Position numbers and translations under genes: made by a program. DNA of 64,000 nucleotides from assembly GCA_963715755.1 (NCBI GenBank), contig OY970273.1, forward strand, positions 86,028 to 150,027, written 5' to 3'. The notes under the pieces were generated by a model that was not told where the DNA came from, did no database searches, and saw only the letters and a list, made by a program, of their open reading frames with translations. Shown here one piece after another: positions 4,815 to 32,821 of the stretch; position 1 is the stretch's first letter; the number at the start of each line of letters is the position of its first letter. The stretch comes from an uncultured Planctomycetaceae bacterium (lineage in GTDB: Bacteria; Planctomycetota; Planctomycetia; Pirellulales; PALSA-1355).

Positions 4815-5216
4815 ATGTTTGCCCGCAGATTCCAACTGATTGTCCTGGTGCTCTTCGTCGTTCTGGCGATTGGGCTGGGGACGCGCCGCGCGAGCGCTTC
4901 GTGCGGCGATTACGTGATGATCGGCGGGCATCATGCCGCCGACCACGCAGCGCCGGCGGCACCGGATGCGCCCTCGAAAGGCCCCGCCCGCGAGCAGGTG
5001 CCCTGTCCCTGCCGGGGTGCCGAGTGTTCGCGTTTGCCGGCATCGCCATCGGCACCGGCACCCGTCCGCGTCGAGCCGGGGCGCGAGAACCTGCTGGGCG
5101 CTAGTCCCATGCAGCCTGGCGCGACGCGCGGCCGCGAGAGCCTGTGCCTCGAACCGGCAAGACTCGCTTTGAGATTCTCTCCGGCGGATATCTTCCGCCC
5201 ACCGCAGTCGGCCTGA
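4815..5216 (+). CDS. hypothetical small secreted Cys/His-containing protein
   Basis: MFARRFQLIVLVLFVVLAIGLG signal/TM then HHAADH and CPCRGAEC motifs; compositionally weak, low support. Confidence 0.25.
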   Translation: MFARRFQLIVLVLFVVLAIGLGTRRASASCGDYVMIGGHHAADHAAPAAPDAPSKGPAREQVPCPCRGAECSRLPASPSAPAPVRVEPGRENLLGASPMQPGATRGRESLCLEPARLALRFSPADIFRPPQSA

Positions 5217-5504
5217 CAGGCCGGCGGATGGTCCGCTCCTGCGCTTGATCGTCGGCGATCGACGACGCGCGCGTTTGCAGCCCTGCTGGCCGAAAGCGTG
5301 CTGCTGCGGCTTGGGTTCTTGTAGTCTCCTGGCGGATGATGCGCCCTGTGGCGCGGCAGTCCGCCCGAGCGAATCCCAGTCGACCGGCAGCGCCTGACCG
5401 AGGGTGAATGCGTGCGCAGCGAGCGCGTCCCGTGGCGGACGGCCGTCTGGCGCGGGAACTGACCCAATTCATTTGCAATCTCAATTCGCGGAGATATACC
5501 GACC

Positions 5505-5774
5505 ATGAAATGCGGAAAATACGGCTATCGAACGGCGGAAAGCGGCCGGGGTCTCGTGCCCGATCCGGCAGAACAGCGCACTCTGGCCTTCGTGCGCCAA
5601 TTGCGGCAAGAAGGCAAACCGTACAAGCAAATCGCGCTGGAGCTGAAGCGGCGGGACATTTTGACCCGCACCGGCCGCACCTGGACCGAGAGGAATTTGA
5701 TCAGCTTGCTGAACAATTCCTTGATCAATGTTTCCTGGCAGATGCCGGAGTATTCGCCGGCGGCCTGTTCCTGA
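5505..5774 (+). pseudogene. remnant of a large serine recombinase (internal Recombinase-domain fragment only)
   Basis: GKYGYRTAESGRGLVPDPAEQRTLAFVRQLRQEGKPYKQIALELKRRDILTRTGRTWTERNLISLLNN matches the Recombinase domain that follows the resolvase catalytic domain; no catalytic N-terminal domain upstream; local G+C clearly lower than flanks. Confidence 0.55.
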
Positions 5775-6019
5775 GCAGCGCCTTGCCGCGGGCGTTTGTT
5801 TCGTCGACGAGGTGGCTAGCTCCGCTGCGTGGGTTGGCGACGGCGCCGAAATCGCGCTAACTCGGTTTTGGTTGCGATGTTCCGCGCCGCAAACCTGGCT
5901 GCGGCGAACGTGGCACCGTTGCCGGCCCACGACAGACTTGTCGGCGCCGGCTACAATTCCCTGCACATCGAGCGTCCTGCGTCGGCGCACGGCTCGACTC
6001 GTGGCAGGCAGGTCCGGCA

Positions 6020-6615
6020 GTGGAATTGAATCGCCGCAAGCGAAAACCCAAGCCGGTGATCGGCTGGCGTGAGTGGCTGTCGCTCTCGGTGCCGGGTATT
6101 CCCGCGATCAAGGCCAAGGTCGACACCGGGGCCCGGAGTTCGGCCTTGCACGCTTTCGACGTGGAGATCTTCTCGCGCGAGGGCGCGAGATGGTCCGCTT
6201 CAAGGTGCACCCCTTCCAGCGCGACAAGACCCACGCGCTGGAATGCGTGGCCGAACTGTACGATCGGCGGACCGTGCGCAGCTCGGCCGGGCACGAAAGC
6301 ATCCGGCCGGTGATCCTGGCCCAGGTCGAGCTGGGGGGCCAAGAGTGGCAGATCGAGCTGACGCTCACTCGCCGCGACGCGATGGGCTTTCGCATGCTAC
6401 TCGGCCGGCAGGCCATCCGCCGGCGCTTCCGGGTCGATCCGGGCCGATCGTACCTGGTCAGTCGAGCCCTGGCCGATCAGGCCAGGCAGCTGCGCCGCGC
6501 GCGACCGGAGACTGCCGGTCCGGCCGGCGGCAATCCGCCCGCTACCCAGCGACCCGATATCCAGCGACCCGATCCCCAGCAGCAGGGGGCCCAGCTGCCG
6601 AGGAATCCCGGATGA
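6020..6615 (+). CDS. RimK-associated retropepsin-like protease (putative ATP-dependent zinc protease family), split by a 1-nt frameshift near 6190
   Basis: frame 2 [58 protein letters not shown] continues in frame 1 as [28 protein letters not shown]...; family normally sits immediately upstream of rimK. Confidence 0.7.
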
Positions 6616-7517
6616 AGATCGCGATCCTGAGTCAGAAGGCCTCGTTGTACTCGACGCGGCGTTTGAAAGAGGCGGGCACCGAGCGCGGCCACGAAATGCA
6701 CGTGGTCAACTACTTGCGCTGTTACATGAACATCACGTCGCACAAGCCCGCGGTGATCAACCAGGGCACGCCGCTCGAGGGCTTCGACGCGGTGATCCCG
6801 CGAATCGGCGCCTCGAAAACCTTCTACGGCACGGCCGTGGTCCGGCAATTCGAGATGATGGGCGTCTTCTCGGCGAACGAGTCGCAGGCCATCACCCGCT
6901 CGCGCGACAAGCTGCGCTGCCTGCAGCTGTTGGCCCGGCAGGGCATCGGGCTGCCGGTGACCGGGTTTGCCAATTCGACCAAGGACATCGACGGCCTGAT
7001 CAGCACGGTGGGCGGAGCGCCGCTGGTGGTGAAACTGCTGGAAGGGACCCAGGGCATCGGCGTGATCCTGGCCGAAACCAACAACGCGGCCGAGGCCGTG
7101 ATCGAGGCCTTTCGCGGCCTGGACGCAAACATCCTGGTGCAGGAATTCATCAAAGAGGCGGGCGGCTCGGACATTCGCGTGCTGGTTGTCGGCCAGAAAG
7201 TCGTGGCCGCCATGCGCCGCACGGCCGTGGCCGGCGAGTTCCGCTCGAACCTGCATCGCGGCGGCACGGCCGAACGCGTCAAGCTCACGCCCGAGGAGCG
7301 CAGCACCGCGGTGCGGGCCGCCAAGACGATGGGCCTGAACGTGGCGGGCGTCGACCTGCTGCGCTCCAATCACGGGCCGGTGGTGATGGAGGTCAATTCA
7401 TCGCCCGGGCTCGAAGGCATCGAGAAGGCTACGCACGTCGACGTGGCCGGCGCCGTGATCCGCTTTTTAGAAAAGAAAGCGGTCAAAGGCCAGACGAAGG
7501 ACCGCGTGAAAGGGTAG
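6612..7517 (+). CDS. rimK: ribosomal protein S6--L-glutamate ligase RimK (ATP-grasp)
   Basis: [18 protein letters not shown]..., ATP-grasp core, ATG at 6612 overlapping upstream stop; the ORF-track N-terminal extension is out-of-frame overlap. Confidence 0.9.
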
Positions 7518-7568
7518 GGGGGCCAGGGTCGCTGCTGCGCCGGCCGATCGCCTCGATCTGCCGCCCGC

Positions 7569-9037
<1,469 letters not shown>

Positions 9038-9040
9038 GAT

Positions 9041-11729
9041 TCAGTCCAGAAATACGAATTCGTTCGAGAGCAGGAGCACCTGTGCGAGCCGAGTCCAGGA
9101 ATCCATCGCGGGGGGCAGCGGACCATGGAAGTCGGTCTCGGCGTTCCAATGATCGGTCGGCAGAGCTTGCCCAGCGGCGGCAGCAGGTGCGCCAGCGGCA
9201 GGGGCAAGATGCAGCTTGGGCGCCCAGCGGAACGAGTCGTAATTGTCGTTGGCCCGCGGATCGACGATGAAGTCGATGGTGTCTCCCCGTTCCACCGCGA
9301 CGTTCTCGACATGCGTGTCTTGCCGGTTGTGCGCCACCGTCCAGCGGCCCAGTACGCCGTGCCGACTCGAGCGGGCAATTGCCTCGACGCCATCGCCCTG
9401 GGCATTGCCGTGTTCGGCTACACCGTCGATCGTCACGCTGCCGGCGGCCGGGGCCGTCCAGCGGCGGACCACCGCCTGTGAGACGCCGGGATGCCCGCCC
9501 GTGGCATTGAGCCCGACGTACGACATTTTCGGATCGGGATACTGAGGCCCGAACTGCCAATGGGTGCCGCTGAAATGGGCCAGGTCCGTGTAGCCGGTCA
9601 GCTGGTCGGCGGCCCGATCCCAGGTGCCATAGCCGTACCGCCAGGCGGGCGCCAAAGGGGCCCGAGCCGCCTCGCCGGCCAGGTAATCCTGGGCCAGCTG
9701 CGCTTCATCGGCCGCCGGCATTCGGCCCAGCGCGCCGGTACAGCCGGGCAATCCGCTCGCGCGGCTGTGCCTGCGCGCTCTGCGCGGCCGGCTCCTGAGT
9801 TGCCGCCGCCAGCAAGCGGGCCTGTTCGGCCACGAACCGGCTATTCATCAGGAACAGGGCCTGCTGGGGCACGGTGGTCACGAACCGCTGCGGGCTGTGC
9901 GTGTCGGGCCCGGCAAAATCGAAGGTGCGAAACATGCCCGGCAGGTTTTGCCGTTCGACCAGCCCGTAGATTGTCCGCCGATGCGTGAAGGGCTCGGTCG
10001 CCAGGTCCACTGACGGTCCGCCCAAAGTCAGGTCCAGCGCACCGCTGGCCGATAAGAGCGCGTCGCGCATCGCTTCCAGATCCAGGCGGCGGCGATTCAT
10101 GCGCGACAAGAGCCGGTTTTCCGGATCGCGCTGGTCGGCCAGCCGCTGCCGCTGGGCGTCGGACGTGTCGCTCGACTGTCGATAGGTGCTGGACAGCACG
10201 ATTGCCCGGTGCAGCTTCTTCAGCGACCAGCCGTCGTCGATGAAATGCCGGGCGAGCCAGTCCAGCAGCTCCGGATGCGTCGGAGATTCGCTCCGCAAGC
10301 CGAAATCGCTGGGCGTGCGCACCAGCCCCGCGCCGAAGAATTGCTGCCACACCCGATTGACCAGCACCCGGCCCGTCAGCGGGTTGTCGCGGCCGGCGAT
10401 GGCCTGGGCCAGCTCGAGCCGGCCGCTGCCTTGCGAGAACAGGGCCGCATCGGGACCGGCCAGGCAGGTCAGGAAGCGCCGCGGGGCTTCGTCGCCCTGG
10501 TTGCCCGGGTTGCCGCGAATGAATACCCGCACGTTGTGTGGCTGCGGAGCGTCGGCCATCGACATTACTTCGGCCGGCTCCTTGGGCTCGACCGTGCTGG
10601 CGAAGACGCCATAGAGGGCGTAATAGTCCTTGGCCGAGATGGGATCGAACTTATGATCGTGGCAGCGGGCGCAGGTGACCGTGAGCCCCATCGTCGTGCG
10701 GCAGAGCACGTCGAGCCGATCGTCGATGATGTCGGCCTGGTTGTTGAGAAACCGCCGACCCACGGTCAGAAACCCGAGTGCCGCCAGCGCGCCCGGCTCG
10801 CCGGCCGTGGGCAGCCGGTCGGCGGCAATCTGCCGGATCAGAAACTCGTCGTAGGGCATGTCGTCGTTCAGGGCCTTGACCACCCAATCGCGATATTTGT
10901 ACGCGAACGGGTACTTGCGGTCCTCCATGAAGACGTAGCCCTTGGTGTCGGCATAGCGTGCATAGTCGAGCCAGTGCCGGGCCCAGCGCTCGCCGTAAGC
11001 GGGCGCCGCGAGCAGGCGATCGACGACGCGCTCGAAGGCATCGGGCGCCGTGTCGCGCGCGAATTCGTCGATCTGGTCGGCCGTGGGCGGCAGGCCCAGC
11101 AGGTCGAACGACACCCGCCGCAGCCACACGGCCCGCTCGGCGGGGGCCGCCGGCGCTAGGCCCGCGCTTTCCAGTTTCGCCAGGACGAAGGCGTCGAGCG
11201 GCGCGCGGACCCAGGCGGTTTGCCGGACGGCCGGCGGCGGTGGATCCCGTAGCGGCTGAAAGGCCCAGTGCCGTTTCCAGGTATCCGGATCGGCTGCGGC
11301 CGCGTCGGCCGGCGCCGTGGGCCAGGGGAGCCCCAGCTCGATCCACTGGTTCAGCGCGGCCAGCGCCTCGGCCGGCAGCTTGCCGTCGGGAGGCATCTGC
11401 AGGTTTTCGTCGCCGTAGCCGATCGCCGTGGCCAGCTTGCTGGCGCCCACATTGCCCGGCACGACCACCGGCCCGCCGTCGCCGCCGCGGAGCAGACTGG
11501 CCCGGGAATCGAGCCGGAGGCCGGCTTCCTGCTTTTTCGGGCCGTGGCACTTTTGACAATGCTCGACCAGCACGGGGCGAACCCGGCGCTCGAATAGTTC
11601 CAGGCCCTCGGGCGTGGCCGCCGGCGCCTGGGCGGCATTGGGCGGGCCTGCATTGGGCGGTTCGGCTGCCAGCCGCGCTCCGGTAAGCAAGGCCAGACCC
11701 AGAGCGGCGTTGAGCAGGCGACGATTCAT
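9041..11729 (-). CDS. planctomycete cytochrome-c domain protein PSCyt1-PSCyt2(DUF1549)-PSD1(DUF1553), split by a frameshift near 9725
   Basis: signal MNRRLLNAALGLALLTGA, heme-binding CQKCHGPKKQEAGLRLD, DUF1549/DUF1553 body; C-terminal ~230 aa continue in another frame and end in the family-typical LLLSNEFVFLD; classic partner of the adjacent DUF1501 gene. Confidence 0.8.
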
Positions 11730-12091
11730 AGGCTCGATCGCAGGGCGGGCGAGGGGCATTCCCGGCGGGCCGGTTCGTGCGTCCGGCAAAGGGCAGGGCA
11801 GCGGGGGTTGCGGTGGGACGTCGATCGTGGCTGGCAGCTTCGGGGCTGCAACTTCGGGGTGGCAACTTCGGGGTGGCAGCCGCTATCGAGAACAATTATA
11901 TCTGCGCCGGCCGGACCTGGCCAATCGGCCCGGCGCACCCTCCGGGCCGTCCGGGCGGCAAATTGCCCGCTGCCGCTCCCGCGCACAACACACGAGCCGG
12001 GCGGTTGTTACAATGTGGTGCGCGCCGGACGGCGGCCCTCCGGCTGCCATCCGACCGCGCTGGCCTGCTGCCGAGACCGGTTGAGCCGTTC

Positions 12092-13210
12092 ATGAAAAAC
12101 GATCCAGTTCCGCCGGTCGACGAGACGATTCCGCCGATCCTGGCGGAGCCGACGCGCGGGTGGTTGTCGCGCGATCGGGCCTTGGCCCTGGTGCTGGTGC
12201 TCGCGACGCTGATCGCGGTGTACCTGTGCTATCTGCTGCTGCACCCATTCCTGTCGGCGATGGCCTGGGCGCTGGCGCTGGCGATTGTTTCGTATCCTTC
12301 CTACGAGCGGCTGGCCCGGCGGATCCGCAGCCGGAACATCGCGGCCGCGATCACGGTGGCGGTCGTGGCGCTGGTGATCATTGCGCCGACGGTGCTCTTG
12401 GCCCAGCAGTTATTGGGCCAGGTGGGCGAGGGGGTCGACTACGTCAAGCACCAGGTGCAGGAGTTGTCGCAGGAAGAGCTCGTCAAGCGACATCCCTGGC
12501 TCGATCCGGTGGTCAAGTGGATCGAGCGCTCGAACGCACCGAACGAGGACGTCAATCGGATCGCGACGACGATCAGCGCGCAGCTATCGTCGTTCGTCAG
12601 CGGATCCGTCTGGGCGCTGACGCAGGTGTTGATCACGCTGTACATCCTGTTCTACTTCATTCGCGACCAGCGCGAGGGGGTCGACTGGCTGCGGTCGCTG
12701 GTGCCGCTGTCGGACGGCGAGACGGACGAAGTGTTTGCCCGGGTGCAAGACACGATTTACGCCACGATCTACGGCAGCGTGATCGTGGCCCTGGTGCAGG
12801 GGGTGGTCGGCGGCGCGGTGTTCTGGGCGGTGAAGTTGCCGGCCCCGCTGCTGTGGGGCGCGCTGATTGCCGTGCTCGCCCTGGTGCCGATCCTGGGCCC
12901 GCTGGTGATCTTCATTCCGGCGGTGCTGCTGTTGGCGCTGCAGGAAGACTGGCCCAAGGCGATCGCCGTGGGCATTGGCGGCATCGTGATCGCCCTGATC
13001 GGCCACTTTCTCTACCCGTTCCTGGTCGGGCAGCGGTTGCGGTTGCACCCGGTATTGGTGTTTTTCGCCTTCTTGGGCGGGCTGGCCGTATTCGGCGCGG
13101 CGGGGCTGATCCTGGGGCCGGCGGTGCTGGCGCTGACCGAAGCCCTGGTCCACGTCTGGCAGCGGCGCACGGCCGCGGGCGGCCCGGCCGAAATCCGGCC
13201 CTCGCTGTAG
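12092..13210 (+). CDS. AI-2E family transporter (PerM/UPF0118)
   Basis: ATG 12092; 8-TM profile with conserved LVPILGPLVIFIPAVLLLAL and GGLAVFGAAGLILGP segments. Confidence 0.85.
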   Translation: MKNDPVPPVDETIPPILAEPTRGWLSRDRALALVLVLATLIAVYLCYLLLHPFLSAMAWALALAIVSYPSYERLARRIRSRNIAAAITVAVVALVIIAPTVLLAQQLLGQVGEGVDYVKHQVQELSQEELVKRHPWLDPVVKWIERSNAPNEDVNRIATTISAQLSSFVSGSVWALTQVLITLYILFYFIRDQREGVDWLRSLVPLSDGETDEVFARVQDTIYATIYGSVIVALVQGVVGGAVFWAVKLPAPLLWGALIAVLALVPILGPLVIFIPAVLLLALQEDWPKAIAVGIGGIVIALIGHFLYPFLVGQRLRLHPVLVFFAFLGGLAVFGAAGLILGPAVLALTEALVHVWQRRTAAGGPAEIRPSL

Positions 13211-24227: not shown

Positions 24228-24272
24228 CCAATCGCCTGTTGCCACGTGCGACGCGAGCCACCCCGAGGGCCT

Positions 24273-25409
24273 ATGAGAACCGAGCGCACGCGTCGACTGC
24301 CACCGCTGTTTACGCAAGTGATCGGCTCGCTCCCCCGGCCGCAAGCGGTGCGCGATCTGGTGGCCGCCCGCGACCGGCGCACCGGCGACGGCGCAGGCGA
24401 TCAGGCCGGGCCAGCGGATGCTGAGGCCCTGGACAGCATGGTCGCGTTTGCCATTGGCGTGCAAGAACAGGCCGGTCTCGACGTGGTCAGCGACGGCGAA
24501 TGGCGCCGCGGCCATTACATCGGCGAATTTCTGAGCCGGGTCGGCGGCTTCGAAAAAGTCCGGCCCTACGAGCACCAGGGGGAACGGAAACTTACCGACG
24601 TGGTCGTTCGTCGGATGCAGGCCGGCGAGCCGGTGTTTGCCCGCGATGCGGCTTTCCTGGCCAGTCACACTCGGCGCGTGACCAAATTTGCCCTGCCCAG
24701 CCCGTTCCTGATTGCGGTGCGCTACTGGCACCAGGACTTCAGCCGCGAGGCCTATCCGACGCTGGAGCATTTCCTCGCGCATCTGGCTGAACTGCTGGCC
24801 CGCGAGGCTCAGGCCGTGGCCGCGGCGGGCATCGACATCGTGCAGCTCGACGATCCGGCCCTGGCTTATTTCTGCGACCGGCGTTTGACCGCCGGCGAGT
24901 CGATCCACGACGAGCGCTTGCGGCGCGAGTGGAACATCGACCGGCAATTCCCTCAGGCGCTGGCGGCGATCGGCCGGGTGGTCGACGGTTTGGCGGCCGA
25001 AGTTCACCTGCACTGCTGCCACAGTGTGTACAAACGGCAGAGCGACGTTCGCGGCGATTACCGGCCGATCCTGTCGCGGTTTGCCGGCGCGCCCATCGAC
25101 CGGCTAAATCTCGAGTTCGCCTACGAGGGCACAGGAGACGTGAGCGACTTGGACCTGCTGCCCGAGGGCATCGACCTGGGCATGGGCGTCGTCGACGTGC
25201 GGACCGAGCAGCCACAGTCGATCGAGGCGATCGAGCGGCTGGCCGCGGCGGGCATCGCGCGGATCGGGGCGGCGCGGATGGCGCTGAATCCCGACTGCGG
25301 CTTTGCGCCCGGGGCCGGCGAACCGCCGACGCTGGACGAAGCCTACGAAAAGCTCAAGCGGTTAGTGGCGGCGGCGAAGCGGCTGCGCGAGCGGTTTGCC
25401 GGCTATTGA
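24273..25409 (+). CDS. cobalamin-independent methionine synthase (MetE C-terminal domain)-like family protein
   Basis: IGSLPRP N-terminus, zinc-ligand-like HLHCCHS and LNPDCGF; last ~50 codons are repeated at 30181-30336. Confidence 0.7.
   Translation: MRTERTRRLPPLFTQVIGSLPRPQAVRDLVAARDRRTGDGAGDQAGPADAEALDSMVAFAIGVQEQAGLDVVSDGEWRRGHYIGEFLSRVGGFEKVRPYEHQGERKLTDVVVRRMQAGEPVFARDAAFLASHTRRVTKFALPSPFLIAVRYWHQDFSREAYPTLEHFLAHLAELLAREAQAVAAAGIDIVQLDDPALAYFCDRRLTAGESIHDERLRREWNIDRQFPQALAAIGRVVDGLAAEVHLHCCHSVYKRQSDVRGDYRPILSRFAGAPIDRLNLEFAYEGTGDVSDLDLLPEGIDLGMGVVDVRTEQPQSIEAIERLAAAGIARIGAARMALNPDCGFAPGAGEPPTLDEAYEKLKRLVAAAKRLRERFAGY
25251..25409. repeat. left copy of ~150-bp imperfect direct repeat (3' end of the MetE-like gene)
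   Basis: ggcatcgcgcggatcggggcggcgcggatggcgct... shares all but ~5 positions with 30181-30336 before the two copies diverge at the last few codons. Confidence 0.8.
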
Positions 25410-25711
25410 GGCCGTTGCAGCCAGTAGTTCGGCTCGCGGCTGCAGTGCGTCACGGCAACTACCAAGATTTCATTTTCCAGCACCTCAAAGACTACCGCGT
25501 AACGCAATTTGTCCAATAACGCGCGGCGGTAGGGCTGGTCGGCCGGGAGGGTCTCAAGTTTGGGAAAACTGAGCGGGCGGGAGACGATGGTGTCAAACGC
25601 CCGCTCAAGTTCGACGAGCAAGGCGGCACCGGCCGACGCGGATTGGTCGTTCAGGTACCGTCGCGCAGCTTCGACCTCAGCCTCGGCCTCGGGAAGGATA
25701 CGGAGGATCAC
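25403..25711 (-). CDS. type II toxin, ParE/RelE family
   Basis: 102 aa ...YRRALLDKLRYAVVFEVLENEILVVAVTHCSREPNYW; overlaps antitoxin stop by 4 nt. Confidence 0.8.
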   Translation of the reverse strand: MILRILPEAEAEVEAARRYLNDQSASAGAALLVELERAFDTIVSRPLSFPKLETLPADQPYRRALLDKLRYAVVFEVLENEILVVAVTHCSREPNYWLQRPQ

Positions 25712-25956
25712 CCTGCCGTCTCGCTCGCCTGACGACGTGATAAGTCGGCAAGCATCTCGGCAGCCGATCTGGTGTCCGTCGCGCCTGCTCGATATGCGGC
25801 CGACCGGCGCTGCAACTCGGTGAGCAGTTCGCTGCCGGCGAGCACTTCGCGGCGATCGCTGGCTTCAAGGCTTTGTCCGAGGGCCACGGCAACGTAGGCC
25901 CGATCTTCGGGTGTGAGGGCAAGCGCCTGTTGCAGAATTTGTTCGCGATCCGACAT
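25708..25956 (-). CDS. antitoxin, putative addiction-module component (TIGR02574-like)
   Basis: MSDREQILQQALALTPEDRAYVAVALGQSLE...; ATG 25956 preceded by GAGGAG; operon with the ParE-like toxin. Confidence 0.65.
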   Translation of the reverse strand: MSDREQILQQALALTPEDRAYVAVALGQSLEASDRREVLAGSELLTELQRRSAAYRAGATDTRSAAEMLADLSRRQASETAG

Positions 25957-26128
25957 GGTCGACTCCTCGCTGGCTGATAGTTCCAATTTTCGCATCGTGG
26001 GGTCCAAAAGTCGAGAGTATTGCCTGTCCGGGTGACGGCCGCACGATAATTGACACCCCACCGCGAACGGTGAGACAATACCGCGCCTGGATTTCATCTC
26101 TCCGCGGCGGCTTTGCCGGACGACGGCC

Positions 26129-29100
26129 ATGGCCCAAAGTTTTGACCCGTATCACATCTGGCTGGGAATCCCGCCCGAGGATCAGCCACCCGATCATTAC
26201 CGCTTGCTGGGGGTCAAGCAGTTCGAGTCGAACCCCGACGTGCTGGAAAGCGCCGCAGATCAGCGGATGACGCACATCCGCTCGTTTCAGACCGGCAAGC
26301 ACGCGGCCGAATCGCAAAAACTGCTCAATGAGTTGTCGGCGGCCCGGCATTGCCTGCTGAATCCGGAAAAGCGCCAGCCCTACGACCAGGCGCTGCGGGC
26401 CCAGCAACCGCAGGCAGCTCCGCCGGCTACGCTGCCCAAAGCGATGCCGACAAGCCCGGTCAGACCGCTGGCCGTGGCCACACCGCTGGCGGTGCAGAGC
26501 GTCGCACCGACGTCGCCCGACCTCGGCTTCGATCCGCTGGAGCAGGCCGGCGGACGGCGCACCGCCAAGAGACGCCGGACCACGGTGCCACCGGTGATGT
26601 TGGCCGCGGTCGGTGCGGGGCTCGTCGCCGTGATTGGAATTGCCTGGGTAATCCTGGGCGGCGGGACGGACGAAAGCACTCCACTCGCCGCACGTGTCCC
26701 GGGTGATTCGGCAACCCGCGAGCAGCGCGGCGCGGACGACACGCGTGAATCGATCCCCGCGCGACCCCTGCCCGCGGCTCCGCACCCATCGACCAGTCCG
26801 CTCGATCCCGACGGCGTTCCGGCGGACGACGGAACGCAGGACTCGATGACCTCAGCCGATGATCCGGCCGTCGAGCCCGCCGAGGACACCGCCGGCGACA
26901 TGCCCGCGGCCGTGTCGGCGGACGAAGACGAGACGCCCCAGACGGCGGTTGAGACCCGACCCGCTCCGCCCGACGCGGCCCAGCAGGCGGCCGCCCTGGC
27001 CGAAGTGCAGCGGGCGCTGAAGGCCGAATTCGCTGCGGCCAAGAAACCGGCCGACAAGGCGGCGCTAGCCGAAAAGTTGCTTGCGCTGGTGCCCGACAGC
27101 AGCGATCCGGGCGAGCAGTACGTCCTGCTCGGCGAGGCTCGGCGGCTGGCCATCGCGGCGGGCGCTCCGGCCCTGGCGCTGCAAGCGACGGAGGGATTGG
27201 CCGAGAGCTTTGCGGTCGATCGCTTCGAAGAGCTGGCCAAAACGGCTGAGGAACTGGGTGGAAAAGACCTTTCGTCGGCACTGAAGAAAGAACTGGCCGA
27301 GTCCCTTGAGCCCCTGACCGGCGCGGCTCTGTCGGCGGGCCAGTTTGCGGCCGGGAAGCGCCTGGCCAGGGTGGGGCTGGCGGCCGCCCGCAAGAGCAAC
27401 CAATCCGAGCTCGCCAAAACCTTTGTCGGGCGGGGCAAGGAATTGGCCGCCGGCGAAAAGGTCGTGACCAGCGCTGCCGAGGCGCGGGAAAACCTGGCAA
27501 AAAATGCGAACGACGCCGCGGCACACGAAACGCTGGGGAGATACTTGTGCCTGTACGTCGGCGACTGGCCGGCTGGCCTAGAGCATCTGGTGCGCTCGGA
27601 GAGCCCGGCCCTGCGGTCCGTTGCCCAATTGGAAACGTCGGCCGATCCGACTCCCGCCGCAATGACGAAACTGGGCGATGCCTGGTGGGACCTGGCCGAG
27701 CATGGCGTTGTGGATGCCAGCCGCATGCGCGGCCGTGCAGGCTACTGGTACGAGCAGGCGGTCGGCGGGCTGACGGGGTTGACACAGACCCGGGTCGAGA
27801 AGCGACTGGAAGAAACCGCTGCTACTCAGCCGAACGGGGCGGGTGGCGGAGTCATTGCCGACAAGCTGGTCCTCTGGAACTGCAATAGTAACCAGTGGAG
27901 GAACCGCGGGATGCTCAGCGCCAACATCGAGCTGCGAAGGGCAGACAAAGTCGTCTGGTCGAAGAAAGACATTCCGCTGGCGTGGAGCAGAGACGAAGAA
28001 CCAGCGACAACGATTCTGTTGCCGAAGATCCCCTTCGACGCATTGCGGGTAGTAACGGCCTCGTTTCAAGAGCTTGGATCGGCGCTCTGCGAGATCGAAG
28101 TTTTTCGCGGTCGCGACAACCTTGCTCGCGGAAAACCAGCGATAGCCAGCGCGACGTACGATTCGCATTCGCCGGCGGCGCTCGTCGATGGAATCACGAA
28201 TTCTTCGCGCGTCGGCGTCGGGTATTGGGTAGCGCCCGACCGTCAGCCCTCTTGGGTCGAAGTGCAACTGACCCCGCCCGTGCGTCCGAACATGGCCGAG
28301 GCAGGTGGCGGCGTCATTGCCGACAAGCTGGTTCTATGGAACTGCAACAGCAACCATTGGAAGGATCGCGGCGTCCTGATCGCCAACGTGGAGTTGATGA
28401 GGGCCGGGAAGGTCGCCTGGTCAAAGAAGGCGATCAGAGTGGCTTGGAGCAAAGACGCGGAACCCGCGACGACGATTCGGTTGCCGAATATCCGGTTCGA
28501 CGTGCTACGCATCGAAGCGGCCTCCCATCAGGGGGCGGGCTCGGCACTGTGCGAGATAGAAGTATTCCGTGGCGGCATGAACCTTGCACGCGGAATGGCG
28601 GTCGTGGCGAGCGGTTCCCACCATTCGGGCCATCATCCGGCCAGCGCCTTGGTTGACGGCGTCACGGATTCATCGCAGGACGGTGTCGGTTACTGGGTCG
28701 CGCCAGACCATCAACAGGCATGGGTCGAAGTGCAGGTCGCTCCGCCATCAACCCCGAGCGGCAAGACCGTCTACTTGTCCGACCTACCGGCCACCGAGAC
28801 TCGAATTCACATCGCGTCACTGTACGACCGGCATCCGGTTGGCGGCGTAGAATGCACCCACGGCCTGTTCATGCCTCCGAACCACAGTAGTTCATCCCAC
28901 GTGGCTTTCGTTCTCGATCAGGAGTACCGGACGGTTTCCGGCGCGGCGGCGATTGCCGACTCGGCTGGAGTGCGAAGCGCCTCGCCGCTGACGTTCCGAA
29001 TCGTAGGCGACGGAACGGAATTATGGCGCACGACAATACAAAGCGTTCGTGAAATTCGGCCTATACGCGTACCTGTCGGCAATGTCAGCAAGCTCGAATT

Positions 29101-30154
29101 GTTCGTCGACTGCCCCGGCAACGCTGACGCGGGACACGCGCTCTGGGTCGATTTGGTTCTAACACGTTCCGGCGCGACACCAACGGTATCCACGAAATCG
29201 CGGCCGGGAAAAACCCCTGATGAACCTGCCGTCAACAAGCAAGGGCACGCCGCCGGTGTCGTCGCGGACAAGCTGGTGTTATGGAACTGCAACAACCACA
29301 CCCGGAATGATCGCGGAATGCAAAGCGTCGACGTTGAATTGCGCGCGGCAGGCAGAGTCGTTTGGTCGAAGAAAAGCATCCCAACGGCTTGGAGCAAGGA
29401 CGACGAACCGGCGACGACGGTCCCACTTCCAAAGGTCGCGTTCGAAGCGGTTCGCGTCGCAACGGCCTCCTTTCAGGGGATCGGGTCCGCGCTTTGCGAG
29501 GTCGAGGTCTTCCAGGGGAACGCCAACATCGCGAGCGGAAAACCGGTGAAGGGCAGCGGATCGTACGCTGGAGAATACTCGCCCGCAGCGGTCGTCGACG
29601 GCATTACCGACTCCTCGCGCTTCCACGTCGGGTATTGGGTCGGGCCCGATCAGCAACTTGCCTGGGTCGAGGTGCAGGTTGCTCCGCCAACGGCGCCGAC
29701 CGGCAAGACCGTCTACTTGTCCGACCTGCCGGTCCTGGAGTCCCAGGTACACACCGGGACGACCCTGACCGACTCGATTCCAGTCGGCGGCGCGACGCCC
29801 GCTCACGGTCTTTTCATGCACCCTGCAGACGGTGGTACGTCGCATGCCGTTTATGCTCTGGACAAGAGATATCAGATGCTCTCGGGCGCGGCGGCGGTCG
29901 GCGACACGGCGGGTGAACGGAGCGCGACGCCGCTCACATTCCGCATTGTCGGGGACGGAAAAGAATTGTGGCGTGCGACGACGCAAGAGGTTGGGGTGAC
30001 ACGCCCCGTGAACGCGCTCGTCAGCGGCGTTACCAAGCTTGAGCTGTTTGTCGACTGCCCCGGCAGTGTGGTGGCTGCGCACGCAGTTTGGCTGGATTTG
30101 GCGCTCACGCGAGCCGGACCGGGCACCGGGCCGAAGGCAAAAAAATCGCCTTGA
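26129..30154 (+). CDS. 1341-aa membrane-anchored multi-CBM protein: J-domain-like N-terminus (no HPD), one TM, helical stalk, 3 discoidin (F5/8 type C)-like and 2 NPCBM-like modules
   Basis: N-terminus DPYHIWLGIPPEDQPPDHYRLLGV...FQTGKHAAESQKLLNEL (J-like, HPD absent); TM VMLAAVGAGLVAVIGIAWVILGG; repeats GGVIADKLVLWNCNSN...ALVDGITxSS...YWVAPD..WVEVQ x3 (27841, 28303, 29249); TVYLSDLP...GHALWVDLVLT and ...AHAVWLDLALT (NPCBM-like, DHADWAD-type ending) x2; repeat region has visibly lower G+C. Confidence 0.85.
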   Translation: MAQSFDPYHIWLGIPPEDQPPDHYRLLGVKQFESNPDVLESAADQRMTHIRSFQTGKHAAESQKLLNELSAARHCLLNPEKRQPYDQALRAQQPQAAPPATLPKAMPTSPVRPLAVATPLAVQSVAPTSPDLGFDPLEQAGGRRTAKRRRTTVPPVMLAAVGAGLVAVIGIAWVILGGGTDESTPLAARVPGDSATREQRGADDTRESIPARPLPAAPHPSTSPLDPDGVPADDGTQDSMTSADDPAVEPAEDTAGDMPAAVSADEDETPQTAVETRPAPPDAAQQAAALAEVQRALKAEFAAAKKPADKAALAEKLLALVPDSSDPGEQYVLLGEARRLAIAAGAPALALQATEGLAESFAVDRFEELAKTAEELGGKDLSSALKKELAESLEPLTGAALSAGQFAAGKRLARVGLAAARKSNQSELAKTFVGRGKELAAGEKVVTSAAEARENLAKNANDAAAHETLGRYLCLYVGDWPAGLEHLVRSESPALRSVAQLETSADPTPAAMTKLGDAWWDLAEHGVVDASRMRGRAGYWYEQAVGGLTGLTQTRVEKRLEETAATQPNGAGGGVIADKLVLWNCNSNQWRNRGMLSANIELRRADKVVWSKKDIPLAWSRDEEPATTILLPKIPFDALRVVTASFQELGSALCEIEVFRGRDNLARGKPAIASATYDSHSPAALVDGITNSSRVGVGYWVAPDRQPSWVEVQLTPPVRPNMAEAGGGVIADKLVLWNCNSNHWKDRGVLIANVELMRAGKVAWSKKAIRVAWSKDAEPATTIRLPNIRFDVLRIEAASHQGAGSALCEIEVFRGGMNLARGMAVVASGSHHSGHHPASALVDGVTDSSQDGVGYWVAPDHQQAWVEVQVAPPSTPSGKTVYLSDLPATETRIHIASLYDRHPVGGVECTHGLFMPPNHSSSSHVAFVLDQEYRTVSGAAAIADSAGVRSASPLTFRIVGDGTELWRTTIQSVREIRPIRVPVGNVSKLELFVDCPGNADAGHALWVDLVLTRSGATPTVSTKSRPGKTPDEPAVNKQGHAAGVVADKLVLWNCNNHTRNDRGMQSVDVELRAAGRVVWSKKSIPTAWSKDDEPATTVPLPKVAFEAVRVATASFQGIGSALCEVEVFQGNANIASGKPVKGSGSYAGEYSPAAVVDGITDSSRFHVGYWVGPDQQLAWVEVQVAPPTAPTGKTVYLSDLPVLESQVHTGTTLTDSIPVGGATPAHGLFMHPADGGTSHAVYALDKRYQMLSGAAAVGDTAGERSATPLTFRIVGDGKELWRATTQEVGVTRPVNALVSGVTKLELFVDCPGSVVAAHAVWLDLALTRAGPGTGPKAKKSP

Positions 30155-30180
30155 GCCGCCGCCGGACTTGCCGTTGCCAG

Positions 30181-30336
30181 GGCATCGCGCGGATCGGGGC
30201 GGCGCGGATGGCGCTAAATCCCGACTGCGGCTTTGCCCCCGGGGCCGGCGAACCGCCGACGCTGGACGAAGCCTACGAGAAGCTCAAGCGGCTAGTAGTG
30301 GCGGCGAAGCGGCTGCGCGAGCGGCTGGCGAAGTAA
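30181..30336. repeat. right copy of the MetE-like 3'-end direct repeat (diverged, encodes ...LKRLVVAAKRLRERLAK*)
   Basis: aligns base-for-base with 25251-25406 with ~5 substitutions, then diverges. Confidence 0.8.
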
Positions 30337-30376: not shown

Positions 30377-30684
30377 TTAATGCGGGCGGCCGAGCCAATA
30401 ATTCGGCTCGCGAATGGCGTGCGCCAGCGCGACGATGACGACCTGGTCCGTCAGCACTTCGAACACCACGGCGTAGTGGAATCGCGCCAGCAGCGCCCGT
30501 CGATAAGGCGCACGCTTGGGTAGCGTTTCCAGTTTAGCGAAGCTCAAGGGACGTTCGGCGATCGCATCGAGCGATTGACACAGATCATTCAGGAATGGTC
30601 GCCCGCGGAGATCGGTCGGCCGTTCAAGAACTGCCGAGCAGCCTCGATCGCCGCTTCGGCCTCGGCGAGGATCCGTGGAGTCAC
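30377..30684 (-). pseudogene. decayed second copy of the ParE/RelE toxin gene
   Basis: GTG 30684 reads VTPRILAEAEAAIEAARQFLN...SAGDHS* then the other frame continues ...SLDAIAERPLSFAKLETLPKRAPYRRALLARFHYAVVFEVLTDQVVIVALAHAIREPNYW; about 10 codons missing relative to copy A and frame broken. Confidence 0.6.
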
Positions 30685-30777
30685 AAGGTGGGCTCGCCGG
30701 CCTGTCGGCACTGCGCGTCGGCAAGCACATCCGCGTCGGCACGCGCGGTCGTTTCGCCGGCCCGGCAGCGACCGATG
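30681..30777 (-). pseudogene. 3' fragment of a second antitoxin copy
   Basis: encodes ...GRCRAGETTARADADVLADAQCRQAGEPTL*, homologous to the C-terminus AAYRAGATDTRSAAEMLADLSRRQASETAG* of the intact antitoxin; N-terminal part absent. Confidence 0.45.
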
Positions 30778-31188
30778 CTAAGGGCTCCCCCAGAACCACG
30801 CGAAAATTCCGAAACCAAGAAGCAGCCCGATCCCGGTTAGGGTCGGCCCCCAAACGGCATTGAAACACACCGGTTCACACCAACGCGGCTGGCTGGGGTT
30901 GTAACGGATGAAGATCGAGTCGCCGCGCCGCCACGGCCTGCGCCACCCGCTCCACGTGGAAACGGTCACGACCTTGTTTCCGTCTACAGTCTCAAATTGA
31001 ACAACGGGAGCATAATAACGCCCCTCGGATCCATGCGTAATTTGATAGCGCAGGACAATCGCCGACACCTTGGGCCAGCGCCGCCACTTCCAGGTTTCGT
31101 AACCGACAAAAAAAATCAGCAGACCTGCGATAAACGTGAACGCGACAACGAAAAAAATGATTTCGATCATACCTGGCTGATCACGCAT
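30778..31188 (-). CDS. DUF3592-family membrane protein
   Basis: MIEIIFFVVAFTFIAGLLIFFVGYETWKW...PVVQFETVDGNKVV...; start could be 31188 (MRDQPGM) or 31170 (MIEII). Confidence 0.6.
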   Translation of the reverse strand: MRDQPGMIEIIFFVVAFTFIAGLLIFFVGYETWKWRRWPKVSAIVLRYQITHGSEGRYYAPVVQFETVDGNKVVTVSTWSGWRRPWRRGDSIFIRYNPSQPRWCEPVCFNAVWGPTLTGIGLLLGFGIFAWFWGSP

Positions 31189-32821
31189 CTCCCTTGCGAG
31201 CAGTCTCCGGCGCCCCGTTGCCGGCGGCAACGTTGCCGCTGGGCGCATTGCGGGCCGGCTCGTGCGCTTCGCCGCCCAGCTTGATTAGTGCCTCGGGCAG
31301 CTCCACCCCGCCGATGTCGCGGAGCACCTGCATCATCGGCGGCATCGTGCTGGCCATGTTGTGCAGGAAGCTGGCCGTGTTGCTCTTGCCGCCCGAGCCG
31401 CCGTTTTCCCAAACGATGACCTTGTCGAACTTGATATTCGAGATCGCCTGGGCCGAGGTCTCGGCCAGCTTGTCGAGGTGTTCGAGCATGAGCAGCTGAA
31501 AGGCCTCTTTGGCGCCGCCGCAGGCCGCGATGATCTGCTTGAGGCCTTCGCCCTTTTTGGCCAGGATTTCGTACTGCCCGCGGGCTTCGGCCTCGAGCTT
31601 GGCGAAAATGGCCTGGGCCTGGCCCTCGGCTTCGATCCGCCGCTTTTGCGCTTCGGCTTCTGCCTCGACGATGGTTTTGGCCTTCTGGGCTTTGGCTGGG
31701 GCTTCGAGCTCGGCCCGGCGCTCGGCCTCGACACGTTCGGCGTCGGCCAGGGCGGCCTTGGCCATGGCCCGGTTCTGGGCCTCGAGCACGGCGGCTTCGG
31801 CCTCGCGCTTGCGGCGCTCGCCCAGCTCGTAGGCCTCGGCCTTTTTGACCAGCAGCTGGGCCTGCGAGTTGGCGATCAGCGCCTGGGCCGAGTTTTCGCC
31901 TTCGATCGCCTTGGCCTCGGCGCCGGCCAGCGACACCCGCATGGCCTGCTGGGCGTTCTTGACCTGGGCGTCGCGATCGAAGGCGGACGACTGCTCGCCC
32001 ACTTTCTGATCGCGGTCCAGCTCGGCCAGCCGCACCGCCTGCTCGCGCTGGGCCTCGCGGGTGCCGATGTCGCGGAACTTATTGGCATTGGCCACCTGAA
32101 TGACGCGGTCGCGCTCGGCCTCGGCGACGCGCGTCTCGCCGATCCGCTCCTGCTCGGCCACGTCGCCCCGGGCTTGCTGGATGGCCTGGCTGGCGGCCTT
32201 CTGGCCGATGGCGTCGATGTAGCCCGACTCGTCCTGGATGTCGGTCACGTTGACGTTGATCAGCACCAGGCCGATCTTTTTCAGCTCCGGTTCGAGCGAA
32301 CTTTGGATGTGATGGAGAAAGGTTTCGCGGTCGCGATTGATGTCCTCGATCCGCATCGAGGCGATCACCTGTCGCAGCTGGCCGAAGATGATTTCCTCGG
32401 CCTGCTTGCGCACCTGGGCCGCGTTTTGCCCCAACAGGCGGATGGCGGCGTTCTGCATCACGTCGGGCGCGGTGCCGATGGCCACCGTGAACACGCTCGG
32501 GACGTTGACGCGGATGTTTTCCATCGACAGCGCCCCGCGGAGCGGAATCTCGATCTGGATCGGCTCCAGGCTCAGGTAACTGTAGTCCTGGATCAGCGGC
32601 CAGACGAACGATGCCCCGCCGTGGATGCAGCGGGCGCTGTCGCCGTGCCCCACCTTGCCGTAGATCACCAGCACCCGGTTGCTCGGGCAGCGCTTGAACC
32701 GCTTGGCAACGAAGATCAGCGTGCTTAGCAGCAGCAGCGCCAGGGCCACGCACATCGCCACCACGTAGGCGTACGGTCCGGACGCGCGACCGGCTTGAGC
32801 GAGCAGGAGGTAGCAGTTCAT
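31181..32821 (-). CDS. flotillin-family SPFH/Band-7 protein (YqiK-like)
   Basis: N-terminal TM, SPFH domain, long Ala/Glu/Arg/Lys coiled-coil (EAERRAELEAPAKAQKA...). Confidence 0.85.
   Translation of the reverse strand: MNCYLLLAQAGRASGPYAYVVAMCVALALLLLSTLIFVAKRFKRCPSNRVLVIYGKVGHGDSARCIHGGASFVWPLIQDYSYLSLEPIQIEIPLRGALSMENIRVNVPSVFTVAIGTAPDVMQNAAIRLLGQNAAQVRKQAEEIIFGQLRQVIASMRIEDINRDRETFLHHIQSSLEPELKKIGLVLINVNVTDIQDESGYIDAIGQKAASQAIQQARGDVAEQERIGETRVAEAERDRVIQVANANKFRDIGTREAQREQAVRLAELDRDQKVGEQSSAFDRDAQVKNAQQAMRVSLAGAEAKAIEGENSAQALIANSQAQLLVKKAEAYELGERRKREAEAAVLEAQNRAMAKAALADAERVEAERRAELEAPAKAQKAKTIVEAEAEAQKRRIEAEGQAQAIFAKLEAEARGQYEILAKKGEGLKQIIAACGGAKEAFQLLMLEHLDKLAETSAQAISNIKFDKVIVWENGGSGGKSNTASFLHNMASTMPPMMQVLRDIGGVELPEALIKLGGEAHEPARNAPSGNVAAGNGAPETARKGDA

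Follow-up and report, generated by a model that had tools for sequence, protein, structure and literature searches.

The window, a stretch of 64,000 nucleotides, contains a giant gene whose product is probably a receptor or tether and not a chaperone. It would be a single-pass membrane protein with N-in/C-out topology that places a degenerate J domain as adaptor head inside and a helical stalk with a five-module glycan-binding array outside. The first ~90 residues, on the cytoplasmic side, keep the J scaffold but have lost the HPD tripeptide, and most likely act as a conserved docking or adaptor module that contacts a shared partner in the cytoplasm. This partner, which we infer together with the direction of any signalling, could be an ATPase of the Hsp70/actin fold, a genuine J protein, or another head. 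Beyond the membrane, a ~100-aa acidic linker and a helical module, probably a stalk or scaffold, would present five galactose-binding-domain-like β-sandwiches (three permuted A units and two NPCBM modules) as a multivalent array toward the periplasm or envelope. A constant head and transmembrane (TM) segment joined to a swapped ectodomain is how receptor or tether families are organised. The gene and its parts are as follows.

26050..26079, + strand: σ70-like promoter match TTGACA-18-(TG)GACAAT, 10/12 match
26129..30154, + strand: giant gene, complete open reading frame (ORF) of 1341 aa
26129..26404, + strand: J-like head, aa 1-92 (Pfam DnaJ alignment, family profile against the PDB)
26405..26584, + strand: cytoplasmic Pro/Ala-rich linker, aa 93-152, ending RRTAKRRRTT (from sequence)
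26585..26665, + strand: single TM segment, aa ~153-179, Kyte-Doolittle peak 2.56
26666..26980, + strand: acidic Pro/Asp/Ala/Thr-rich linker, aa 180-284 (from sequence)
26981..27826, + strand: conserved helical module, aa ~285-566 (conservation among homologs)
27842..28294, + strand: unit A1, aa 572-722, circularly permuted discoidin/F-lectin-type β-sandwich (repeats and fold evidence)
28304..28756, + strand: unit A2, aa 726-876, circularly permuted discoidin/F-lectin-type β-sandwich (repeats and fold evidence)
28757..29173, + strand: NPCBM module B1, aa 877-1015, Pfam NPCBM E 7.6e-13, profile 2-136 of 137
29249..29698, + strand: unit A3, aa 1041-1190, circularly permuted discoidin-type domain
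29699..30112, + strand: NPCBM module B2, aa 1191-1328, best Pfam stretch 1194-1326, profile 2-136 of 137

The ORF is present as the preliminary description had placed it, and databases list a protein of 100% identity (P0001) that is encoded on a contig of 7.08 Mb. A protein database search retrieves 82 homologs, and the start codon is judged right because the N-terminus aligns with the N-termini of these homologs. The GC1/2/3 values of 0.68/0.52/0.74 are typical for coding DNA, and an NCBIfam scan of the whole 1341-aa protein gives no match. The promoter match sits ~50 bp upstream of the ATG and is only suggestive, with one found against 0.6 expected by chance.

A J-like head without HPD

The claim of a J-like N-terminus that lacks HPD is borne out. 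The head is built from a ~20-aa family-specific extension (FDPYxxWLGIPPxxQPP) and a degenerate J domain at aa 22-88. Pfam DnaJ (PF00226) aligns to it over the full length of the profile (aa 22-86 to positions 1-63 of 63, E 0.008), at 16.7 bits and thus below the gathering threshold of 27.8, a weak similarity for this single protein. An E-value of 0.01 or better is reached by only 10 of 42 heads tested, and P0089 attains 43.3 bits solely through the summing of five heads. When the family profile of the head is compared with the PDB, 19 matches are returned, all of them J domains (best E 3.7e-5). These profile alignments establish the head as a full-length homolog of J domains without HPD, and the complete alignment points to a four-helix J fold.

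The loop between helices II and III reads H-I-R-S-F-Q-T-G-K-H, and HPD is absent whichever of the two alignment registers is chosen (I-R-S or F-Q-T for the 1341-aa protein). In a survey of such N-termini on planctomycete proteins, which extends the earlier observation, none of 284 heads (226 proteins) carries HPD in the helix II-III loop. Because the tripeptide is lost both here and across the family, the head is probably unable to stimulate ATP hydrolysis by Hsp70; in all systems that have been tested, the ATPase is no longer stimulated once H or D of HPD is substituted (PMC8215388). In the profile alignment, the basic contacts R22/K26/R27 in helix II of E. coli DnaJ align with L/A/D in the head, an assignment that depends on the alignment.

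These losses bear on the reading of the protein as a true membrane-anchored co-chaperone, similar to DjlA, that recruits and activates DnaK at the membrane, for instance for the export or folding of its own ectodomain. The homology of the head to J domains would fit such a role, as would two relatives, P0075, a single case in which the head is fused to a full Hsp70 domain (E 1.7e-109), and P0181, in which a canonical HPD J domain follows directly behind the head. Set against the missing HPD in all heads and registers and the replaced helix-II contacts, this role is quite unlikely. With J-domain proteins, and especially with the membrane-anchored class C protein DjlA from E. coli, the head shares the ~65-residue helical domain, the membrane tether, and the cytoplasmic J side. 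It differs from them in the family-specific conserved loop that takes the place of HPD, in the conserved 20-aa N-terminal extension, and in its score below the Pfam DnaJ threshold. The placement is also opposite, as the TM segment of DjlA is N-terminal and its J domain C-terminal.

Parallels for the preferred reading as an adaptor are found among J-like domains that lack HPD themselves. Pam16/Tim16 from mitochondria and ARC6/Ftn2 (ZipN) from chloroplasts and cyanobacteria have regulatory or docking rather than Hsp70-activating roles, and ARC6/Ftn2 combines an N-terminal J-like domain, one TM segment, and a domain across the membrane. The head would resemble them in keeping a predicted J fold without HPD as a putative docking module. 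In contrast to these single-copy components of import and division machines, the head is massively expanded, lineage-specific, and found in hundreds of architectures.

Membrane anchor and head family

The preliminary description had also proposed one TM helix, followed by a Pro/Asp/Ala linker and a helical domain, and this order is recovered from sequence and homolog conservation. The single strongly hydrophobic segment is preceded by RRTAKRRRTT, with six K+R on its N side versus one on its C side, and a single TM segment lies at the equivalent relative position in 79 of 83 homologs. The positive-inside rule and the domain fusions of the family both argue for an N-in/C-out topology. Membrane anchoring is upheld. 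That the protein lies at the cell surface is uncertain, since in a diderm cell an anchor of C-out orientation in the cytoplasmic membrane would place the lectin array in the periplasm. Planctomycetota import polysaccharides into an enlarged periplasm, and a multivalent lectin facing this compartment would suit such biology.

The acidic linker shows no conservation among homologs and is presumably disordered. The helical module is conserved in >60 homologs, at varying positions (three copies in P0061), and is marked by the motif ...GxYLCxxxGDWxxGLPHLAKGxD...LGDAWWDLA...RAxxWYxxALPxLxGLxKxxVEKRL. Its profile finds no Pfam family, and its matches in Pfam and the PDB are limited to designed helical repeats and stray TPRs, which give no assignment.

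At 50% identity the head sequences form about 10,000 clusters, and species-representative genomes contain at least 585 loci, which places the head among the most abundant lineage-specific modules measured in this analysis. Neither Pfam nor NCBIfam holds an entry for it, and literature searches for the head motif and for J-like domains in Planctomycetes returned no description. The largest survey of J-domain proteins (PMC10410713) removed every sequence without HPD and thereby left the head out by design. Sequence comparison reveals a very large Planctomycetota family in which the head, the TM segment, and usually the helical module are constant, and the ligand-binding ectodomain is swapped. 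The partners of the head include NPCBM, FGE-sulfatase, WD40, LRR, and lectin domains, and P0071/73/74 carry the head together with a kinase. This constant chassis with exchanged ectodomains suggests a large repertoire of receptors or tethers in Planctomycetota. Planctomycete transmembrane Ser/Thr kinases and anti-sigma factors likewise have variable extracytoplasmic domains and share the plan of a constant cytoplasmic module, one TM segment, and an interchangeable sensor ectodomain. The 1341-aa protein differs from them in having no catalytic or DNA-linked output, with the J-like head as its sole cytoplasmic module.

The same constancy could be explained if the head were a biogenesis or sorting tag of large C-out proteins that directs their membrane insertion, their quality control, or their localisation (e.g., at crateriform or pilus sites). 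Consistent with this, the head begins within the first 12 residues in 213 of 284 cases, nearly all homologs have a single TM segment no more than ~40-170 aa further on, the head is 60-70% identical among homologs and thus far more conserved than the remaining protein, and one family member (a single case) is a PilM fusion. A pure targeting signal would not be expected in proteins without a TM segment (P0075, P0080), in tandem arrays of two to five copies (P0089), or at internal sites, all of which occur, and this makes the explanation unlikely.

For the head as an adaptor, the family-wide loss of HPD together with the 60-70% conservation across otherwise unrelated proteins implies a strong, shared interaction. 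A possible, though rather doubtful, extension is that the HPD-less head serves as the common coupling module of an undescribed, Planctomycetota-wide transmembrane system, in which dozens of paralogous receptors per genome, each bearing its own extracytoplasmic ligand-binding domain (in this protein the lectin array that would face the periplasm), dock one cytoplasmic partner, plausibly an Hsp70/actin-fold ATPase. If true, an interface between J domain and Hsp70 that once activated chaperones would now serve in signalling or anchoring. An Hsp70-independent or non-canonical function of a J domain is directly testable here, in a phylum with unusual cell biology. When conserved neighbours are sought across 80 loci, no partner gene recurs near the heads, and the one large neighbour cluster is made up of the family's own antisense shadow ORFs.

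The putative lectin array and its permuted units

Three discoidin-like modules of ~150 aa and two NPCBM-like modules had been claimed for the C-terminal region. The latter are confirmed by domain searches, with 90.4 bits to Pfam NPCBM (PF08305) against a cutoff of 23.9 in two near-full-length stretches, and B2 is 57-58% identical to B1. A single-sequence NPCBM search against the PDB gives no match. Carbohydrate binding by these modules is suggested by their family, NPCBM/NEW2, which is equivalent to CAZy CBM51. Compared with known modules, the two full-length matches well over threshold are shared, whereas here they lie in a membrane-anchored, noncatalytic array with no glycoside hydrolase attached. 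Fold and family together suggest that the five-module array may bind glycans.

For the discoidin-like modules, the fold stands at the level of predicted structure, and the canonical discoidin order does not. By sequence, Pfam F5_F8_type_C stays below threshold (20.0 bits versus a cutoff of 28.2), and its alignment covers the second half of A2 alone (aa 828-869 to profile 5-40). Searches of an A unit against the PDB with a single sequence and a profile HMM yield no significant match; the top "Symfoil" hits are repeat artefacts, and the sole lead is that the permuted profile aligns weakly, in colinear fashion, with F-lectins. Structure prediction returns the distorted jelly-roll β-sandwich for the A units, with a strand order that departs from the canonical N-to-C order of F5/8 type C, discoidin, and CBM32 domains. 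The permutation was probed in the same way by folding the natural b+a stretch and half-unit fragments. In these models, the ~150-aa A units prove to be circular permutants, in which the C-terminal two-thirds of the fold come first and the N-terminal third comes last. The b+a register was rejected as the native folding register, as arrays open with "a" and close with "b", and a+b units also occur singly. A3 is itself isolated, flanked by the two NPCBM modules, and in the A1-A2 pair domain swapping may occur.

The permuted unit is rare, since a homolog search with one A unit finds two fragmentary proteins only, and literature searches for permuted discoidin domains returned no description. The circular permutation between CBM36 and CBM60 (PDB 2xhh) belongs to a different CBM family; unlike that case, the A units still lie in a tandem array, as a route of duplication followed by truncation would predict. 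They offer a clean natural case of a permuted discoidin/CBM32-type domain within an array that could have generated it. Because sequence models miss the permuted domain, it is of value to CBM annotation as well as to work on how folds evolve. The A units are alike to CBM32, F5/8 type C, and F-type lectin domains in their β-sandwich fold and unlike them in strand order. β-Sandwiches of the same fold also bind protein and lipid, as in the C domains of factor V/VIII, neuropilin, APC10, and IFT25.

Repeat age and the surrounding locus

In-gene DNA repeats are present as described earlier, beginning at 27835, 28297, and 29242 (300 nt, 74% and 69% identity), and further repeat families in the gene have spacings of 462-468 and 942-945 nt. 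Between the copies, tblastn gives E-values of 1e-63 to 1e-65, far past chance. The drop in G+C over the array is equally real (0.58-0.63 in 27800-29400 versus 0.66 for the window). What the preliminary description had read from both, an array grafted onto a native N-terminal module and repeats liable to recombination, does not hold up. The drop stems chiefly from first codon positions (0.735 to 0.636), whereas GC3 falls merely from 0.78 to 0.71, and the GC3 of the gene, 0.74, is within 1 SD of 39 ORFs in the window (0.79 ± 0.07); a graft by horizontal transfer was rejected on this GC3 evidence. The longest exact matches between repeat copies are 15-27 bp, which leaves the case for recombination weak. 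The duplications are judged old, because the A units differ among themselves (59-67% identity) about as much as from the units of the closest homolog (50-64%), and recent, recombination-prone expansion was rejected on both counts. The gene is surrounded by the following features.

25250..25394, + strand: left copy of a 145-nt direct repeat, 3′ end of an intact MetE-like gene (24246-25409)
25403..25956, − strand: ParE toxin and antitoxin pair, divergent from the giant gene (Pfam)
30180..30324, + strand: orphan MetE 3′ fragment that forms the right copy of the 145-nt direct repeat, 95.9% identical

The divergent toxin–antitoxin (TA) pair across a 172-bp intergenic region, another of the earlier claims, is corroborated by Pfam. 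The toxin (25403-25711) matches ParE_toxin (E 2.9e-7, 31.4 bits versus 23) and the antitoxin (25708-25956) Unstab_antitox (E 5.9e-5, 23.5 bits versus 23.3). With a ParE-family toxin and an adjacent upstream small antitoxin gene that overlaps it by 4 nt, the pair is of the ParDE-like type II. The antitoxin ATG at 25956 on the minus strand is served by a GAGGAG ribosome-binding site, and exactly 172 bp separate the antitoxin start from the giant gene. The pair is merely adjacent to this gene, and the adjacency is not conserved: the closest homolog lies among housekeeping genes with no TA pair beside it.

This neighborhood bears on a reading of the protein as an NPCBM/FGS-type sensor in conflict or immunity, in which the head is a small helical, effector-associated adaptor for homotypic joining and the TA pair and repeat-flanked cassette represent a defence-island context. 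The variable partners mirror the interchangeable sensor and effector sets of bacterial conflict systems (PMC8195603), and the same head occurs on sensor-like and enzyme-like proteins. Published NPCBM/FGS systems, however, are intracellular, whereas the lectin modules here lie past a conserved TM segment; moreover, no STAND NTPase, caspase, TIR, or other effector neighbor recurs in the 80 loci, and the setting of the closest homolog is a housekeeping one. A conflict role is thus very improbable, and the gene product is better read as a receptor or tether. The 145-nt direct repeat (96% identity), whose right copy starts 26 nt past the stop codon, brackets a 4.9-kb segment with the TA pair and the giant gene. 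If anything was acquired as a unit, it would be this whole TA-plus-gene segment.

The giant gene and its J-like head

The giant gene is an intact ORF preceded by a sigma70-like sequence match:

26050-26079: sigma70-like match TTGACA-18-TG-GACAAT, ~50 bp upstream of the giant-gene ATG
26129..30154, + strand: giant gene, intact ORF, 1341 aa

A database protein search returned an identical protein on a 7.08-Mb contig along with 82 further homologs, and the ORF proposed in the preliminary description stands. The start codon is correct, since the homolog N-termini line up with the giant protein from residue 1, and the codon-position G+C (0.68/0.52/0.74) follows the pattern of coding sequence. The sigma70-like match is only suggestive of a promoter.

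The N-terminus (the head, aa 1-92) had been likened to a J domain without HPD, the tripeptide that canonical J domains use to activate Hsp70, and both points hold. Residues 22-86 cover the entire Pfam DnaJ profile (1-63 of 63, E 0.008) with 16.7 bits, below the threshold of 27.8 bits. In a single-sequence PDB search all eight matches are J domains (best E 0.003). A profile built from an alignment of 42 homologous heads matches 19 PDB sequences over positions 22-88 (best E 3.7e-5). Because every one of these 19 is a J domain, the head is a genuine but distant homolog, in which a conserved 20-residue extension (FDPYxxWLGIPPxxQPP) precedes the J domain. HPD is found in the helix II-III loop of none of 284 head domains from 226 proteins, where the consensus H-[VLI]-R-[ST]-[FY]-Q-[TS]-G-x-H takes its place. 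Depending on the alignment, HPD falls opposite I-R-S or F-Q-T of the giant protein, and neither of the two registers restores it. In the 284-head sample HPD stands at the right place only once, in the homolog P0181, whose head is followed by a separate canonical J domain that carries it. Replacing H or D abolishes ATPase stimulation in all systems examined so far (PMC8215388). The basic helix-II contacts of E. coli DnaJ (R22/K26/R27; review PMC8215388) correspond to L39/A43/D44 in the profile alignment, an assignment that depends on that alignment. With HPD absent and these contacts replaced, the head is unlikely to act as a canonical co-chaperone; that the giant protein is a true DjlA-like co-chaperone is quite improbable, being contradicted by the loss of HPD across the whole head family.

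Searched exhaustively with the head profile, a set of 1.84 billion representative proteins yielded 10,767 clusters (E<=1e-3), of which 9,184 remain at E<=1e-10 and 4,581 at E<=1e-30. Canonical J domains, although far commoner, are absent from these matches, which sets the head apart as a distinct family. At least 585 head loci are confirmed in species-representative genomes, one genome sometimes giving several. The best 80 of these loci are all labelled Planctomycetota (among them Pirellulales, Thermoguttaceae, Pirellulaceae, Rhodopirellula, and Anatilimnocola) except three contigs of one "Nealsonbacteria" bin. The heads on these contigs (L053, L057, and L077; JABMRB01, "Candidatus Nealsonbacteria" bin.20, a CPR-labelled MAG) are of the usual planctomycete kind, with 64-66% identity, and the contigs are probably mis-binned Planctomycetota DNA rather than a true occurrence outside the phylum.

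Pfam detects only 10 of the 42 heads even at E<=0.01, NCBIfam has no match to the giant protein, and the J-domain survey that is the largest in print dropped all sequences without a full HPD (PMC10410713). No description of the head motif was found in the literature searched. The superfamilies of all components (J domain, NPCBM, discoidin fold) are already known; the domain combination, the very abundant one-phylum head that lacks HPD family-wide, and the circularly permuted discoidin unit appear undescribed within that literature.

Membrane topology and modular organization

In agreement with the single TM predicted to follow the head, the giant protein has a lone hydrophobic segment at aa ~153-179 (peak of 2.56 on the Kyte-Doolittle scale), flanked by six K+R on the N-terminal side versus one on the C-terminal side. 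Exactly one such segment occurs in 79/83 homologs, always C-terminal to the head. Ser/Thr protein kinase domains (homologs P0071, P0073, and P0074) and a PilM-type actin-fold ATPase domain (P0083) sit between head and TM, and P0075 (loci L082 and L083) joins the head to a full Hsp70 domain (HSP70 E 1.7e-109) with the TM absent. Since these fusion partners are cytoplasmic ATP-dependent domains, the head would lie in the cytoplasm and all modules past the TM outside it.

In the manner of a Rosetta stone, the fusions may point to the partner of the head; those to Hsp70 and PilM, both actin-fold ATPases, are single cases that hint at the kind of partner. No neighbor gene is conserved across 80 head loci. 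The head occupies the extreme N-terminus in 213 of the 284 cases, which agrees with a role as biogenesis or sorting tag, but this role is unlikely as tandem, internal, and TM-less heads do not fit it. Two to five heads each are borne by 51 of the 226 proteins; one of them, P0089 (604 aa), exceeds the Pfam DnaJ threshold only through the summed scores of its five tandem heads.

Past the TM, more than 60 homologs share a helical module of ~290 aa (aa ~285-566 of the giant protein, window 26981-27826) with the pattern GDWxxGLPHLAKGxD...LGDAWWDLA...WY..ALPxLxGL...VEKRL. Its distance from the TM varies between homologs, and P0061 contains three copies. The module is not in Pfam, and a PDB search returned resemblance to designed helical repeats only. 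It is an independent, mobile, extracytoplasmic domain and may at most be called a helical stalk or scaffold. The other extracytoplasmic domains vary by homolog (NPCBM, LamG, WD40, C-type lectin, PA14, FGE-sulfatase, LRR). Such an organization, in which the cytoplasmic module is constant, the TM single, and the ligand-binding ectodomain swappable, is that of a receptor or tether family. Head-bearing genes often stand side by side as tandem paralogs with differing C-termini (6/78 loci, for example P0002/P0003), suggesting that genes were duplicated locally and their domains shuffled.

C-terminal modules and their repeats

The C-terminus is composed of five modules:

aa 572-722: A1, ~150-aa unit
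aa 726-876: A2, ~150-aa unit
aa 877-1015: NPCBM module B1, Pfam NPCBM profile 2-136 of 137
aa 1041-1190: A3, ~150-aa unit
aa 1191-1328: NPCBM module B2, Pfam NPCBM profile 2-136 of 137

The two NPCBM modules, a lectin domain with a discoidin-like fold (PMC8195603), were recovered as expected (whole-protein Pfam E 1.4e-25). The three units described as discoidin-like are present, but none of them reaches the Pfam F5/8 type C threshold, the sole match aligning the second half of one unit with the first 40 model positions. The first ~90 residues of each unit (half "a") terminate in ...LCEIEVFRG, a typical discoidin C-terminal strand, and are followed by half "b" with the typical discoidin N-terminus NLARGKP...VDG...WVEVQ. 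The A units are circularly permuted discoidin units.

The tandem DNA repeats reported within the gene are confirmed. Copies of a 300-nt family begin at 27835, 28297, and 29242 (74% and 69% identity), companion families keep the same spacings (462-468 and 942-945 nt), and tblastn between the protein copies gives E 1e-63 to 1e-65. From the spacing, a block of A+NPCBM (~945 nt) was duplicated first, and A1/A2 arose by a later duplication. Identities are 67% for A1-A2, 59-63% for A-A3, and 57-58% for B1-B2; with 50-64% identity to units of the closest homolog P0002, the units differ among themselves about as much as from those. Exact DNA matches from copy to copy are 15-27 bp at their longest. The repeats are old duplications rather than a recent expansion prone to recombination.

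The drop in G+C is also present (C-terminal half 0.618, N-terminal half 0.681, window mean 0.662). It falls mostly on the first codon position (0.636 versus 0.735), because Ala/Pro-rich N-terminal linkers are set against a beta-sandwich composition. GC3 declines slightly from 0.777 to 0.711, and the gene as a whole (0.74) differs by less than 1 SD from the mean of 39 ORFs in the window (0.79 +/- 0.07; range 0.66-0.89). The idea that a foreign sugar-binding array was grafted onto a native head finds no support.

In the best-supported reading, the giant protein would be an N-in/C-out membrane protein. Its five galactose-binding-domain-like modules would form a multivalent array, carried by a helical stalk and a long linker and facing the periplasm or envelope if the cell is diderm. 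The cytoplasmic HPD-less head may serve as a docking module common to the whole family.

Genomic neighborhood

The giant gene lies in a segment bounded by direct repeats:

25250-25394: 145-nt direct repeat, left copy, 3' end of an intact MetE-like gene
25403-25711, - strand: ParE toxin (Pfam E 2.9e-7)
25708-25956, - strand: "addiction module component" antitoxin (E 5.9e-5)
30180-30324: 145-nt direct repeat, right copy, orphan MetE fragment 26 nt past the giant-gene stop
30377-30711, - strand: second ParE-like gene beyond the right repeat, in two frames (ORFs 30589-30711 and 30377-30868)

The divergent arrangement with the toxin-antitoxin (TA) pair is as described: exactly 172 bp separate the giant gene from the ATG of the antitoxin (25956), which has GAGGAG ahead of it. 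The repeat copies are 95.9% identical and flank a 4.9-kb segment with the giant gene and its TA neighbors. On the left, the copy belongs to a gene with a Meth_synt_2 match (E 4.2e-26), and the right copy still reads as the final 49 aa of MetE (ORF 30088-30336). The second ParE-like gene is frameshifted, has 70-76% DNA identity to the intact one and no recognizable antitoxin, and is probably what is left, in decay, of a TA pair present before the insertion. A simple tandem duplication is disfavored by 96% identity of the direct repeat versus ~73% for ParE. The arrangement fits a [MetE-3'-ParE-antitoxin-giant gene] segment that may have been inserted when recombination took place inside the 3' end of MetE; no integrase occurs within the 4.9 kb.

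The closest homologs, the tandem paralogs P0002 and P0003, lie in an unrelated neighborhood with neither TA pair nor MetE gene nearby, so that adjacency to the TA pair is not a conserved functional link. Their genes occupy 4930-9780 and 9895-12369 of locus L081. The partner repertoire (PMC8195603) and the TA and cassette context suggest a conflict sensor of NPCBM/FGS type, in which the head would be an effector-associated adaptor. This is very unlikely, as the lectin modules sit past a conserved TM and recurrent effector neighbors are absent from the 80 loci.

Downstream of the giant gene, a DUF3592 membrane protein gene (30778-31248, - strand) overlaps by 68 nt an SPFH/Band 7 flotillin-like gene (31181-32821, - strand), which suggests a co-transcribed membrane-microdomain pair.
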